DNA from: Octopus vulgaris | Taxonomy: Eukaryota | Direction of reading: 5' to 3' | Assembly (NCBI GenBank): GCA_951406725.2 | Contig: OX597824.1 | Location: 69,626,001 to 69,690,000 of the forward strand | Length of the DNA stretch: 64,000 nucleotides | In this document: in pieces, positions 26,902-45,424 of the stretch | How positions within the stretch are numbered: position 1 is the first letter of the stretch | Layout of the letters: each line of letters opens with the position of its first letter | Notes under the pieces: model-generated | Seen by the model: the letters and a program-made list of their open reading frames with translations, nothing else | Told to the model about the DNA's origin: nothing | Databases searched by the model: none | Made by a program: the position numbers and the translations under genes

Positions 26902-27244
26902 CATCTTGTTTGTTGTTTGTTGTTAACACAATGTTTCGGCTGATATACCCACCAGCCTGATATACCCACCATCAAGTGTCTTGGGGAAATTTCGAACCTC
27001 GGTTCTCATTCTTAAGGTATTTTTCGATATTATTATTATTATTATTATTATTATTATTATTATTATTATTATTATTATTATTAGTGTCGTCGTCGTTGTT
27101 GTTGTTGTTGTTGTTGTTGTTGTTGTTGTTTTTGTTGTTGTTGTTGTTGTTGTTGTTGTTGTTGGTATTCAGGTCACTGCCTTGAATCGAACTCGGAATC
27201 TTGTGGTTAGTAGCCCGCGCACTTAACTACTACGCCATATGCCC
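26902..27244 (-). mobile_element. tRNA-headed SINE-like element with a hammerhead-like 3' module (left arm of inverted dimer)
   Basis: Minus strand GGGCATATGGCGTAGTAGTTAAG (A box)..GAGTTCGATTC (B box), (AAC)/(AAT)n, then GACACTTGATG..GGCTG..CAGCCGAAACATTGTGTT. Confidence 0.75.
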
Positions 27245-27247
27245 ACT

Positions 27248-27582
27248 GTGGTTAAGAGCGCGGGCTACTAACCCCAAGATTCCGATTTCGATTCAAGGCA
27301 GTGACTTGAATAATAATAATAATAATAACAACAACAACAACAATAATAATAATAATAATAATAATAATAATAATAATAATAACAACAACAACAACAACAA
27401 CAACATCGAAAAATACCTTAGGAATGAGAAGGCAGGTTCGAAATTTCCCCAAGACACTTGATGAAGGCTGGAGGGTATCAGCCGAAACGTTGTATTAACA
27501 ACAAACAAGATGAGAACAAATGTAAATAATGTAAATAATGTAAATAGTGTACATAATTCCTCATCTCTTAAATATAGAACTG
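27248..27582 (+). mobile_element. Same element, right arm, about 15 nt 5'-truncated
   Basis: Reverse complement of the left arm; extends into an (ATGTAAATA)n tail. Confidence 0.75.
27453..27496 (+). ncRNA. Degenerate minimal type I hammerhead-like motif
   Basis: GACAC-TTGATGA-A-GGCTG-gagggtat-CAGCC-GAA-ACGT-T-GTATT; core has C3>U and stem I has one mismatch (GTGTT in the other arm). Confidence 0.5.
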
Positions 27583-27646
27583 TTGATACAACTTGTAACC
27601 GAGTCGTTGCACAATTGTGTTATTCTTTATTTTCGTATATAACATA

Positions 27647-28043
27647 CTAGCAGTATCACCCGGCGTTGCTCGGGTTTGTAAGGGAAATAACTATATAAGC
27701 ATTTTTAGAGAGTTATAGCCAAAAATAGGCAAAAAAATGCATTAAAAATGGAAAAAAAATTATGGTAAATTTTTTTTTTAAATCGTTGACTCATCGTAGA
27801 CATTTTTAGAGAGTTACTTCCCTTTTTTAATAGCGAAAAAATGCATTAAAATGGAAAAAAATGATGGTAATTTTTTTTTAATCGTAGACTCATCGTAGAC
27901 GCGCACTAATACCCAGAAGGGTTCGATATGAATCACGACTATAAGATACCCGGTTTTGGTTAAACTGCACCGCAAAATGTGGGAGTAGTTAGGAATCTAA
28001 ATCGTAGGAGACAGACATACAACTTGACTTTTATATATAAAGA
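27647..28043 (-). mobile_element. Non-autonomous Helitron
   Basis: TC start, hairpin plus CTAG end, A|T target; same family as 10222. Confidence 0.85.
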
Positions 28044-28049
28044 TAATCA

Positions 28050-41139: not shown

Positions 41140-41840
41140 ATATTGGCTTCAAATTTTGGCATAAGGCCAGCAACTTAGCGGGAGGAGATAAGTCGATTAC
41201 ATCGACCCATGTACACAACTGGTACTTATTTTATCGACCCCGAAAGGATAAAAGACAAAGCTGACCTCGGCGGAACTTGAACTCAGAACGTAAAGACGGA
41301 CGAAATGCGGCTAAACATTTTTCCCTGCATATTAATAATTCTGCCTGCTCGCCTCCTTAAAGAGACAAATACTGATTTCAAATTTTGGCACAATGCCGGC
41401 AATTTCGAGGGAGGGGTTAAGTCGATTGCATCGACCCCAGTGATCAACTGGTACCTATTTTATCGCCCTCGAAACAATAAAAGGTAAAGTCAATCTTGGC
41501 AGAATTTGAACTCAGAATGTAAAGACAGACGAAATACCTATTTCTTTACTACCCACAAGGGGCGAAACACAGAGAGGACAAACAAGGACAGACAAACGGA
41601 TTAAGTCGATTATATCGACACCAGTGCGTAACTGGTACTTAATTTATTGAACCCGAAAGGATGAAAGGCAAAGTCGACCTCGGCGGAATTTGAACTCAGA
41701 ACGTAACGGCAGACGAAATACGGCTACGCATTTCGCCCGGCTTGCTAACGATTCTGCCAGCTCATAGCCTTTAGACAGACGAAATATCACTAAGCATTTT
41801 GTCCAGCGTGTTAATGACTGTGTCAGCTCGACACCTTATG
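41140..41840 (-). mobile_element. SINE family A array, including a full copy nested in another A copy
   Basis: AGACAGACGAAATA flanks the inner copy (about 41523 and about 41773). Confidence 0.85.
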
Positions 41841-43328
41841 TCACCTGAATATTGATTATAAATACCTTTTTAGATTTTTATAGTTGTTTTTATCTATTTA
41901 TAGTTGTTTGATCGTATTTTATTTTTAATAAATATTTATTATCTGTAAATTTTCTTTGTTACCTTTCATATGTCGTGTTTGTTTTACATTTACATTTCCT
42001 TTTCAATGAAAAATTACATTAGCATAAAAGTACCTTAAATGGTACCTAATTGATCAACACGTGGTCTATGAATAGGCATACGTATAAGCATGTGTGCGGG
42101 TGTATATTAACATGTATGGATTTGTGTGCTTCTGTCTGTGAGTTTGTGTATGTGTATGCATGTGTGTGTGTGTGTGTATGTGTGTGTGTGTGTGTGTGTG
42201 TGTGTGTGTGTGTGTGTGTGTGTGTGTGTGTGTGTGTGCGTGTGTGTGTGTGTTTACATAACGAGTAGTAAAAAATGGTTTCTACCACTGAGCATTTTGC
42301 ATGCACGCATCTACACACTTAAAATATACACACAAATGCGTGGGCAATGATGAAATTTCTAAATAGTCTCTCGATCTGCTAGACATAACTACTAAATCGC
42401 CCTTTAACCTCGCCTAATCATATCAGTAAAAGGAAAGGACATAGAAGACAGTAGTCTCAGATATACTGCCAGAAGAAAAAAAAAATGATGAGGTGGTCTT
42501 AGCTAGATCCTTCTTTGACCAAAAGTCTGCAAAATTTGAGCTGGTATGAGGTTACACAAAAGCCTTACATAAAAGCAATGGTAACGTTTACTCGATTTGC
42601 TTCAAATAACAGCCCAAGAGTCCATCACATCCTTCCTTCCATGAGCTGTTATGTTTAAGAACTCCTGGTGACGGCTTCTACGAGTCCCTATACGCTTTTC
42701 ACATGCCCTCTTCTGTTCCCTTCCGTTGTTACTTACAAGGCACCATCATGTCGTCTATAGCCAACACTTAAAGAGCGACAGAAATAGAATGAGAAATAGA
42801 GTAGTAGTAGTAGTAGTAGTAGTAGTAGTAGTAGTAGTAGTAGTAGAAGTAGTAGTAGTAGTAGTAGTAGTAGTCATAGATCACCTTAATAAAAGCAAAT
42901 TTGGGGCTTGGTAGCATGAGTTTAGCAGAGGATGTGTGTGTGTGTGTGTGTGTGTGTGTGTGTGAATATCCACAAAGGTAAATGTTTATTATTTAAAGTA
43001 AATACATGTATCGTTGTTTATATATGTATGTGTGTGTGTCTGAGTGTGTGTGTGTGTGCGTGTGTGCGTGTGTGTGTGAGTATGTATGTATGTATGTATG
43101 TATGAATGTGTGTGCGTACATGTACTTCGTGTGTTTATGCTGTGTTTCCTGTCTTTCTTGTAAAGTAAAAGTATTATATATATATATATATGTATATATA
43201 TATATATATATATATATATATATATATATATCGGGAAGCTTTATGAAAATAAACAAAAGACGAAGGCAGGTGGAAAACAAACGAACAATTGTATTAGTAT
43301 GGCGCTCAGGAAATATAAATAAAACAAG

Positions 43329-43366
43329 TCTTTAACGTTTCGAGCCTACGCTCTTCAACAGAAAGA
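43329..43366 (-). ncRNA. Minimal hammerhead-like motif with a variant core
   Basis: TCTTT-CTGTTGA-A-GAGC-gtag-GCTC-GAA-ACGT-T-AAAGA: perfect stems I and II; A6>U relative to CUGANGA. Confidence 0.6.
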
Positions 43367-44267
43367 TACACAGAGAGAAAAAACACAGAAAGAAGGAGAG
43401 AAAAAAATGCGTGCAGTAGCTAACGAATCAACATGGCGATCTGATTTCGGCCAGAGGTCAAAGATCAAACATGAGACGCGAGAGCGAAATAAGGGGAGAT
43501 AATAGGGTTGATAAATGGGTTGAGGGACCAGCTAAAAGTGCGTGGGAGGGGTCTGGATGTGTGTATGTATAGGGTTGGTGTATGTATTAGTATGTATAAG
43601 GGTGTGTGTGTGTGTGTGTGTGTGTGTATGAGAGAGTATTAGTGCGTAAGATTGGTCTGGACGTGCGTATGTATGGGGTTGGTGTATGTATTAGTATGTA
43701 TTAGTATGTATTAGTACGTATTGGTATGTATAGGTGTGTGTGTGTGTGAGAGAGAGAGTATAAGTGCGTATGCGGGGTCTGGACGTGTGTATGTATAGGG
43801 TTGGTGTAAGTATTAGTATGTACTAGTATGTATTAGTACGTATTAGTATGTATTAGTTGGTGTGTGTATTAGTATGGCACATCATATGTGATGTGATGTG
43901 TAAAGTCATGTGGTGTAGTGAGGAGAAGAGGGGGAGGGGGAGAAGAGGGGGAGAGAAGGGGAGGGGGAGAAGGGGGAGAAGGGGGAGAGGAGAGGATGGG
44001 GGAGAGGAGAGGATGGGGGAGAAGGGGGAGAGGAGAGGATGGGGGGAGAAGGAAGGGGATGAGGGGGATGAAGGAGGAAAGAGGGAGAGGGGGAGAGAGA
44101 AGGGGAGAGAGGGAGTGAGGGAGCAGAGGGAAGGGGAAGAGGGAGGGAGAAAGAGGGAAGAAGGGAAGGGGAGTAGGGGTGAAAGGATGAAGGACTGAAG
44201 AAGTAGGGGTCGGGGGAGAAAGGATAGGTGAGGAGGGGGGAGAGGGGGGTTAGATGAGGAGGGGGGA

Positions 44268-44602
44268 GAGTTGAGACCAAATGGCGTATAAGAGCGAAGA
44301 GAGAAGATTAATTCCTGTTCACGGCGCAAACGGGAATCCGGATGGCCTCTGTGTAAGGACAAACCGAACACAGATAGGTGTTGCAAGGAGTGACCGGTGG
44401 AGCGGAAATGGCGTGAGACCGGTGTGTCGTTCGCAAGGTGGATGTCACGAAGGTGTTCCGCGAACCGGTCAGCCAAGCGGCGTCCCGTTTGTCCGATGTA
44501 CAAGGAATTGCAGAGAGAGCAAGAGATGCAATAGATAATATTGCTGGAGGTGCAGGTGAAGGAGTGGATGATGGGATAGGGTCGATGGTGGGTGCTAGTG
44601 AG
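44268..44602 (-). pseudogene. PLE GIY-YIG endonuclease domain (Neptune-like), 5'-truncated
   Basis: Open frame HSFTCTSSNIIYCISCSLCNSLYIGQTGRRLADRFAEH..VSRHF..GHS..RLRREQELIFSLRSYTPFGLN. Confidence 0.9.
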
Positions 44603-45424
44603 GCGGTGGTGTTGGAGAGGTATATATGTATATATATATATATATATATATATATATATATATATATATATATATATATATGAGTGTATTTTACATTGTT
44701 AAAAGGATTCACGCAAGCACAAACATGCATACACATATACACCCAAATCACGCCAATTCACAATTATATATTTTAAAAATCTTTTCGACATCATCATCAT
44801 CATCTACAACAACAACACAAACGATCACCAGCATCTAATGAAATATCGGCTGATATATTTACTGCTTGGTACAATAATACATGAAACAACAACACCTACC
44901 ACCACCACCACCACTATCAAGAAAAATAACTACAGCCCCCCAACCGCCATCACACTCCAACCGCCATCACTACTATAATTCCGACAACTACCACTGCCGA
45001 CACCACCAATACCACGGCCCTCCACCACTTTCATCACCACCATCTGCATCACCATAACTACCACCGCCAACAACATCAACAGTAGAACCCACTACCACGA
45101 CGACGACGACCACCACCACCACCATCACTAAAACGTAGTACAATCGTTTGAGCGATCGTTCAAATCTTGCAATCATGGTTCAGTGAACACATTAGTATTA
45201 GAGCGGATCATCTCAATGAATGGATCAAGAGAGAGGGAGAGCGAGAGAAGGAGAGAAAGAAAGACAGAAAGAAAGGAGCAAACCAATTACGTGATACACT
45301 TTATACAGGATTTCTTTGACACGGCTATTTACCTAGAGCAATACCAGTCTTCTTAACTACTCACTTAACATAGAAACACTCATCAAAACAAATTAACAAA
45401 CAGCAAATACGAAATATAAATATA

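Follow-up and report, generated by a model that had tools for sequence, protein, structure and literature searches.

Three minimal hammerhead motifs in an octopus genomic window probably belong to three separate repeat elements, including a candidate SINE with a PLE-derived tail

Three hammerhead ribozyme motifs lie within a 64-kb window of the Octopus vulgaris genome (the whole stretch of DNA that was analyzed), and they raise the question whether a common motif layout reveals a common mobilizing system. An initial annotation had placed the motifs at positions 27453, 40274 and 43329. All three are present there, and their frequency is above chance. A strict scan of the window gave three matches (two in element B, one in element C) versus 0.005 per shuffle in 200 shuffles, and it passed over element A because stem I of A contains one mismatch. 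A relaxed scan gave five matches (A, B twice, C, and an unrelated one at 23958) versus 0.06 per shuffle in 100 shuffles. Both descriptors were drawn up once the motifs had been seen, so this test was not blind. The original count was too low, as the minus strand also bears a decayed A motif and two further copies of the B motif, in the second of which stem I is mismatched (Table 1). An Rfam search of the region, at the gathering threshold or E<=10, returned no hammerhead and no tRNA. We consider it probable that A, B and C are three separate repeat elements, each with the ordinary minimal hammerhead of Penelope-like elements (PLEs): C a truncated PLE, B likely derived from a PLE, and A likely a SINE copied by a PLE other than that of C.

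Table 1. Features of the three hammerhead-bearing elements and their surroundings.
Feature	Positions	Strand	Remarks
Direct repeat, left copy, 12 bp	26864..26875	+	likely target-site duplication of the A pair
Element A pair, whole	26876..27582	head-to-head	head with Pol III A/B boxes, (AAT/AAC)n spacer, tail with hammerhead and sharp 3' end
Element A minus copy	26876..27244	-	tRNA-like head in full, (AAC/AAT)n spacer, hammerhead decayed
Decayed hammerhead of A minus copy	26925..26980	-	stem I intact, palindrome disrupted, 12 nt duplicated within stem II
tRNA-like head of A minus copy	27167..27244	-	A box 27237-27227, B box 27192-27184, tRNA spacing
Element A plus copy	27246..27582	+	head without first 15 nt; spacer ~27310-27403; tail 27404-27582 to the family's sharp 3' end
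Hammerhead A, minimal type I	27453..27496	+	cleavage predicted after 27491; 27458 and 27494 privately changed
Direct repeat, right copy, 12 bp	27583..27594	+	flanks the A pair
Element B overall	38700..40612	both	tandem/inverted ORF-less unit
Element B fragment	38700..38902	+	starts at the palindrome inside the hammerhead; between (TA)n runs
Element B, 1.5 tandem units	39284..40116	-	556-nt ORF-less monomer; hammerheads 40084-40032 and 39528-39476, 556 nt apart
Element B inverted 5'-truncated copy	40113..40612	+	head-to-head join, 4-nt overlap; ends in (TA)n
Hammerhead B	40274..40326	+	8-nt palindrome, stem II weak; cleavage predicted after 40322
Element C, 5'-truncated Neptune-type PLE	43232..44620	-	endonuclease end and microsatellite-swollen 3' UTR
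Hammerhead C	43330..43365	-	cleavage predicted after 43334, ~100 nt before the element 3' end; core position 6 is T
GIY-YIG endonuclease remnant of C	44267..44620	-	118 codons read

Hammerhead A consists of stem I GACAC (27453-57), the core TTGATGA (27458-64), an extra A, a stem II of 5-6 bp that starts with a G-C pair, GAA (27484-86), ACGT, T27491, and a 3' stem I strand with one mismatch. Hammerhead B combines stem I TGAG/CTCA with the core CTGATGA, an extra T, a stem II of just 3 bp, a 3x3 internal loop and 3 bp, GAA, the palindrome ACGTACGT, and T. In hammerhead C, the core CTGTTGA is followed by an extra A, stem II GAGC/GCTC, GAA, ACGT and T, and stem I is CTTT/AAAG. Compared with the core CUGANGA...GAAA...UH, which admits variants, B is exact, A is exact in the majority letters of its family, and C has one change, at position 6. 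All three have one nucleotide left unpaired between 9 and 10.1, and the palindrome at 15.2-16.2/loop 3 comprises four nucleotides in A and C and eight in B. A and C have the G10.1-C11.1 pair; B departs from the grammar that had been described as shared, with A-U as the first pair of stem II and a further unpaired T before GAA. The Y in the proposed core YTGWTGA is a private change of locus A: the majority letters in contigs of the A tail restore C3 (C at 27458 in 96% of the depth) as well as stem I (94%).

The reading of all three motifs as PLE-type hammerheads was borne out. An extra nucleotide before stem II and a palindromic 15.2-16.2 are the general consensus of minimal hammerheads in the pseudo-LTRs of metazoan PLEs (PMC4209133; Cervera and de la Pena 2014). 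Compared with these, C differs solely by the T at core position 6, B adds the extra T before GAA and the weak stem II, and A adds a Pol III-type head. Because this published consensus is found in many unrelated families inside single genomes (PMC4209133), its presence in A, B and C does not reveal a single system. The grammar, as it was posed, is a rediscovery of the 2014 consensus; the real lead at this locus is element A.

The motif of element C lies downstream of the GIY-YIG frame, as had been stated, but the presumed autonomous PLE is here just the last 1.4 kb of one. The remnant matched the Pfam GIY-YIG family with an E value of 2.4e-4 and 21.8 bits, just below the cut-off of 22.6. It has 23 relatives (best E 3e-30), of which six contain an RT domain (precomputed Pfam or our own Pfam search) and 18 a Cx2-5CxxC linker. 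C resembles the Neptune clade of PLEs (PMC8557442) in its C-terminal GIY-YIG with internal CxxC, its (TA)n flanks (43175-43231 and 44621-44681), its 5' truncation, a hammerhead near the 3' end, and relatives with RT and linker. Unlike full Neptune elements, the truncated copy stops just before the linker and lacks the RT; the linker also occurs in Nematis, which is a possible alternative clade.

For element B, the "terminal repeats" of the initial annotation are actually 1.5 tandem minus-strand units together with a fourth fragment and a copy that is inverted and truncated at its 5' end. The antisense frames matched no Pfam family. The ORF-less tandem units with a 556-nt period and two consecutive type I hammerheads, one per unit, resemble animal non-LTR retrozymes and non-autonomous PLE derivatives (PMC7229834; 10.64898/2026.07.22.740005; MRC1 in PMC8557442), and the unit falls within the 51-972 bp range reported. 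B is likely a tandem non-coding unit derived from a PLE, and it is an already known kind of element.

Element A has a different architecture, a tRNA-like head joined to a hammerhead tail. A combined A- and B-box scan of the window gave 3 matches versus 0.03 per shuffle. Neither Rfam nor ARAGORN at default settings identified a tRNA in the head; ARAGORN called one only at low thresholds that yielded 57 calls in the window and were uninformative. The absence of TTTT was rejected as a sign of Pol III transcription, since 53% of the shuffles also lacked it.

The A pair is inserted in non-repeat DNA between two copies of a 12-bp repeat; as a control, a 12-nt flank match was reached in 1.85% of 2000 window pairs. 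The minus copy ends about 36-45 nt before the family 3' end, and its stretch 26876-26901 aligns loosely, by eye, to the family tail. The two halves differ by about 8% (identities 59/64 and 100/109). Both carry the C3-to-T change in their hammerheads, a variant that makes up at most 4% of the depth, and this common rare letter together with the flanking repeat makes one insertion event likely; the divergence of the halves and the loose last 26 nt of the minus copy make two separate insertions possible. Among the hallmarks described for PLEs are an inverted copy truncated at its 5' end and a tail of 30-40 bp that occurs at just one end (PMC8557442). In A, the inverted 5'-truncated partner, the tail at one end and the likely target-site duplication were found together at one locus. 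Other SINE families of the window likewise have inverted neighbors, 100-270 nt apart.

The tail of A was found to be short, non-coding, dispersed and high in copy number, with a defined 3' end. In one DNA run, 21,848 of 40.6 million contigs aligned to it (tail-only query). The family depth drops about 1000-fold past 27583, where 535 contigs exit into mixed flanks that are not (TA)n, and the end has neither poly(A) nor a simple repeat. These properties apply to the tail, and one raw-read run (X22) disagrees: just 2 of its 12.9 million reads fell on the tail, which is at odds with a very abundant family. Two further runs, tentatively taken as RNA, contained 2,221 and 959 tail contigs, numbers that do not demonstrate transcription, and no pile-up of molecule ends on the tail was reported in these run data. 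Apart from the two private positions and CpG, the motif positions that varied by at least 8% (one run) were N7 (18%) and a loop-2 position (12%), both of them free positions. Pattern scans for the tail gave no hit in metagenome contigs (twice) or in viral contigs, and no PLE bearing the A tail.

A is likely a SINE with a PLE-derived tail that is mobilized by a PLE rather than by the usual LINE partner. More tentatively, and with somewhat less than even confidence, we propose that it is a major undescribed octopus SINE family with a PLE in place of the LINE and with its hammerhead kept under selection. We infer transcription, cleavage and the kind of driver as follows. Transcription by RNA polymerase III would begin at the internal A and B boxes and continue across the spacer and the tail. 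That tail would be an end captured from a PLE (pseudo-LTR and hammerhead) and recognized by a PLE protein, as LINE tails serve ordinary SINEs, and the driver would be a reverse transcriptase and endonuclease of Penelope type, distinct from those of C. Target-primed reverse transcription with a template switch would generate the head-to-head pair with its two 3' ends, the one-sided short tail and the 12-bp duplication. Self-cutting of a lone copy would be poor, since a palindrome of four nucleotides depends on another copy from its own family, and uncut head-to-tail RNA would be the template; the fixed family end, about 91 nt beyond the predicted cut, fits such a template. Published cleavage of minimal PLE hammerheads is weak (PMC4209133), and eight of nine Xenopus dimers assayed did not cut (10.64898/2026.07.22.740005); a review (PMC6765202) credits Lunse et al. 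with cleavage of such motifs as dimers.

Among known systems, animal retrozymes differ from A, which is dispersed, with its head and 3' end both fixed, and forms no tandem array here. Sm-alpha and Sj-alpha of Schistosoma, as described in PMC6765202 and PMC8490949, share with A a Pol III promoter and a type I hammerhead in a short non-coding retroelement. Sm-alpha is described there as tandem and as releasing monomers through its active ribozyme, whereas A has a minimal PLE-type motif, about 91 nt kept beyond the cut site, and a PLE-type inverted insertion. The tRNA-like head recalls the octopus tRNA-derived SINEs OK, OR1 and OR2 (Ohshima and Okada 1994, as cited in PMC4758252 and PMC4824008). 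The two citing papers disagree on whether OR1 or OR2 is the CORE-SINE, and neither mentions a hammerhead in them; A may be identical with a named family. The literature surveyed pairs tRNA-derived SINEs with LINE partners, and a search that did not cover most subscription papers, Repbase and Dfam found no PLE-mobilized tRNA SINE and no octopus SINE with a hammerhead.

Alternatively, A could be an ordinary LINE-driven SINE that took up a PLE end as part of its body, with the hammerhead as a passenger and the inverted pair as an accident. Captured retroelement pieces are frequent in SINEs according to PMC5786205, the pair is a single locus with halves 8% apart, and inverted neighbors occur among the window's other SINEs. 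We nevertheless regard this as unlikely, as the pair terminates in a 3' end on either side, is enclosed by one 12-bp repeat, and has a rare variant in common between its halves. Twin-priming by LINEs yields an inversion but no second 3' end. The sharp 3' end without a simple-repeat or poly(A) tail and the avoidance of catalytic positions by the common variants also argue against this reading.

It is more doubtful still that the abundant unit is a PLE end alone, in the form of truncated pseudo-LTR copies, and that the tRNA-like head became attached to it here or at a few loci. Such a view would accord with read and contig counts that cover only the tail, and with the empty result when translated head-spacer-tail frames were used as probes for other linked copies, a weak test because these frames are not genes. 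It is opposed by an independent contig (run X17, loose end before 27442) in which a head-like end leads via a short (AAT)n to an A tail; this one contig carries the linkage of head and tail beyond our locus, the query having been the tail. A second contig has (AAT)n ahead of a tail copy. Also, the depth of the family remains high as far as the spacer boundary, the 18 of 375 loose ends listed include no large upstream-exiting group, and within the window the head always occurs with an A tail, except for a 24-nt match to another SINE head.

If A is indeed a PLE-mobilized SINE, it would belong to a SINE class defined by a new driver, in which PLE proteins act in trans on a Pol III RNA, and an end of about 180 nt would suffice for PLE integration. 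The function of hammerheads in PLEs has been termed unclear (PMC8557442). With thousands of recorded insertions, such a plentiful passenger driven by Pol III would serve as a natural minimal substrate; its copies would define the PLE cis element, test selection on the ribozyme, and show whether PLE-type inversions hinge solely on the end of the template. Octopus genomes have a large "unclassified SINE" fraction (PMC13282606), part of which would then be reclassified.

That A and B are non-autonomous clients was partly upheld: with their inverted 5' copies, both look like passengers of PLE machinery, but their membership in the same system was not supported. A single PLE, that of the C family, could drive all three elements with the hammerhead shape as a common handle, since a protein could recognize shape and not sequence. 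The same motif class is present in all of them, B and C both lie within (TA)n, and A and C end about 90-100 nt past the predicted cut. We consider this improbable, because the motif is generic among metazoan PLEs, A is inserted outside (TA)n, and drivers are plentiful, with about 190 PLE consensus families listed for one octopus genome (supplement of PMC13282606). In six comparisons, A, B and C revealed no convincing similarity of their flanks, and BLAST gave no cross matches. Flank likenesses of B and C upstream (p 0.03) and of A and B downstream (p 0.015) were set aside as low-scoring, two of six without correction, and without BLAST support.

Heterodimeric cleavage across families via the ACGT palindrome, which had also been suggested, is highly improbable: ACGT-ACGT pairing is equal for A-A, A-C and C-C (-1.7 kcal/mol) and B and C lie 3.3 kb apart on the same strand, but B pairs with itself at -9.8 versus -2.4 with A or C, and the unrelated stem I strands noted in the same annotation cannot pair across families. 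A swapped dimer also swaps stem I, placing the 5' strand of one molecule on the 3' strand of the other, and cross pairing comprised 0-1 contiguous pairs in six of six cross combinations versus 4-5 in cognate ones. Four rows with the 5' strand of the minus A copy, which is identical to that of the plus copy, were left out of this comparison. As a general rule, the palindromes would allow copies to dimerize, while stem I insulates the families.

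All three motifs reported in the initial annotation were present at the stated positions, and each could be parsed as a type I hammerhead whose stem III is palindromic. A strict motif scan of the window yielded three matches versus 0.005 per shuffle, and a relaxed scan yielded five, of which four lay within the repeat elements A, B, and C, versus 0.06 per shuffle; both descriptors were drawn up with the motifs already in view. None of the three hammerheads was caught by any model in an Rfam search of the window.

Coordinates and composition of the hammerhead-bearing repeat elements
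Element	Position	Strand	Description
A	26876-27582		A/B-box head, (AAT/AAC)n spacer, 180-nt tail with hammerhead
B	38700-40612		four pieces, 95-98% alike
C	43232-44620	minus	truncated PLE, between (TA)n runs

The common grammar, from which a single system driven by a Penelope-like element (PLE) had been proposed, consists of already published traits of metazoan PLE minimal hammerheads, namely a short stem I, an unpaired nucleotide separating 9 from 10.1, G10.1-C11.1, and a palindromic 15.2-16.2 (PMC4209133). As such hammerheads are described there for many divergent families in each genome, a common motif indicates "PLE-type" and not "same PLE". Opposite-strand pairs separated by 100-700 bp are also described (PMC4209133), and tandem animal retrozymes have been argued to be non-autonomous PLE derivatives (2026 preprint 10.64898/2026.07.22.740005). 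In B, the motif is present, but its fit is poorer than had been claimed, with an extra T before GAA, a weak stem II, and an A-U first pair.

At the start of the minus copy of A, an A box and a B box are spaced as in a tRNA, and only three such pairs exist in the window versus 0.03 per shuffle; neither Rfam nor default ARAGORN called a tRNA in the head. Heads of another tRNA-type SINE family, also with A/B boxes, lie at 12027 (-) and 19476 (-), with five related intervals and no hammerhead match within.

Four sequencing runs were compared with the tail stretch of A only (27404-27640). In the DNA run X3, 21,848 of 40.6 million contigs fell on the tail, which we take solely as "very abundant", since summed contig depth is no copy number. 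The summed depth drops about 1000-fold beyond 27583, and 535 contigs depart there into AT-rich flanks of mixed sequence (agreement 0.42). In run X22, of 12.9 million raw reads only 2 fell on the stretch, which speaks against abundance. One X3 contig joins the 3' end of A (27582), via 20 letters opening with AAT repeats, to another tail copy (27410), a partial tandem of the sort that PLE insertions make.

At 27458 the majority letter of the tail contigs was C (96% of depth), which repairs the core of the window copy, and at 27494 it was G (94% of depth), which repairs its stem I. The core of the A family is thus canonical and its stem I complete, and the "Y" in the proposed YTGWTGA signature reflects local decay of this copy. 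Other X3 variation of at least 8% inside the hammerhead was confined to CpG sites, to N7 (18%), and to a single position in loop 2 (12%), which modestly suggests that source copies of A kept the ribozyme; in run X17, position 4 was changed in 10%.

The two copies of A abut in head-to-head orientation; the first 15 nt are missing from the plus copy, and a 12-bp direct repeat is found on both sides (26864 and 27583), a length reached in 1.85% of 2000 control pairs. The halves are now 8% apart, with a loose alignment over the 26 outermost nt of the minus copy, and both have a rare T at C3. Because of the flanking repeat and this shared T, the pair is likely to represent a single insertion event. 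Both outer ends are 3' ends, one of which stops about 36-45 nt short. PLE insertions are described as having an inverted 5' copy and a one-sided 30-40-bp tail (PMC8557442), and the A pair, at this one locus, matches both hallmarks.

In the mechanism that we favor, A would be transcribed by Pol III, its tail would be a captured PLE end acting for recognition, target-primed reverse transcription by PLE machinery, with a template switch, would give rise to the paired copies, and lone copies would be cleaved little. As a whole, we consider this scheme moderately probable. That A is instead a LINE-driven SINE, with the hammerhead as a passenger motif, appears rather unlikely. In LINE twin-priming the 3' end is not duplicated, and other SINEs in the window also have inverted neighbors, but 100-270 nt apart and not abutting as in A. 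Still less likely is a local chimera: in one X17 contig a head-like end is followed by a short (AAT)n run and then by the tail of A, and head-to-tail linkage outside this locus rests on this one contig.

The closest precedent for A is Schistosoma Sm-alpha, which also combines a Pol III promoter with a hammerhead but is arranged in tandem and cut into monomers (PMC6765202, PMC8490949). No PLE-mobilized tRNA SINE was found in the accessible text of the literature searched, including PMC7229834, PMC6962438, PMC10886601, PMC4758252, PMC4824008, PMC11722881, 10.1101/596502, and PMC13282606, and the supplement of the last contains 0 mentions of ribozyme. The comparison was with these published descriptions, and A may already be a named family in Repbase, Dfam, SINEBase, or the 1994 paper on octopus SINEs.

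On the minus strand, B includes a tandem of 556-nt monomers (1.5 units) that carries two hammerheads. An inverted copy, truncated at its 5' end, is joined to it across a 4-nt overlap, and a further fragment starts at the palindrome; all outer ends lie in (TA)n, and no coding match was found in B. With its partial tandem and inverted 5' copy, B resembles described PLE insertions (PMC8557442) and is probably a young PLE-type unit, non-autonomous and of a known kind. The start of the fragment (38700-38712, plus) coincides exactly with the self-complementary sequence surrounding stem III; it comes straight after (TA)n, about 10 nt 5' of the predicted cut, and the palindrome may make the reverse transcriptase stall or switch.

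Element C is an ordinary PLE in truncated form. Its 118-codon frame gave a GIY-YIG match slightly below the Pfam cut-off and had 23 protein relatives (best E 3e-30), 18 with the Cx2-5CxxC linker of Neptune/Nematis as defined in PMC8557442 and 6 with an RT domain. The only named relative, an Octopus bimaculoides protein, shares 69% identity with the query across 64% of its length. The copy breaks off directly after the linker, and its hammerhead lies about 100 nt from its 3' end; being truncated, it cannot itself drive anything, contrary to the autonomous role assigned to it. In the core of this hammerhead (43355-43361, minus), position 6, which is usually conserved, is a T. The O. bimaculoides gene model "Ig-like domain-containing protein" (P0012) holds an internal C-like GIY-YIG fragment, either an exonized PLE piece or an annotation error.

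A single driver behind A, B, and C is as doubtful as a chimeric origin of A. Pairwise comparison revealed no similarity among the three outside the core, and the grammar is general to PLEs, so the one-system reading is not supported. B and C have (TA)n targets in common, A differs, and B and C could have the same class of driver. Cross-family heterodimeric cleavage is highly improbable: the palindromes were computed to be able to pair between families, but, judging from strand order, a dimer with intermolecular stem III would take the core from one molecule and H17 with the stem I 3' strand from the other, and stem I formed 0-1 contiguous pairs in all six cross-family combinations versus 4-5 for cognate strands, four rows with a misplaced strand slice being left out. 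The unrelated stems would therefore insulate the families. Cleavage is predicted after 27491 (A), 40322 (B), and 43334 (C), and would be confined to dimers within one family. Two B hammerheads and that of C lie on the same (minus) strand within about 4 kb (39284-43365), and a single read-through RNA could carry all three.

The window consists of animal DNA rich in microsatellites. Within it, the 5' part of a U4 snRNA (3837-3912, minus; Rfam 57 bits, E 4e-10) breaks off at about 73 nt, amid SINE copies, and is likely a retroposed pseudogene. Broken reverse transcriptase frames at 8541-9744 (+) were judged by eye to be of LINE type, and 75-nt inverted repeats with 93% identity, 113 nt apart (14008-14269), are probably a MITE. 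A three-copy repeat (27644-28047) lies directly upstream of two related fragments (28307-28538 and 28935-29177) whose translation, by eye, we take to be mariner-transposase-like.
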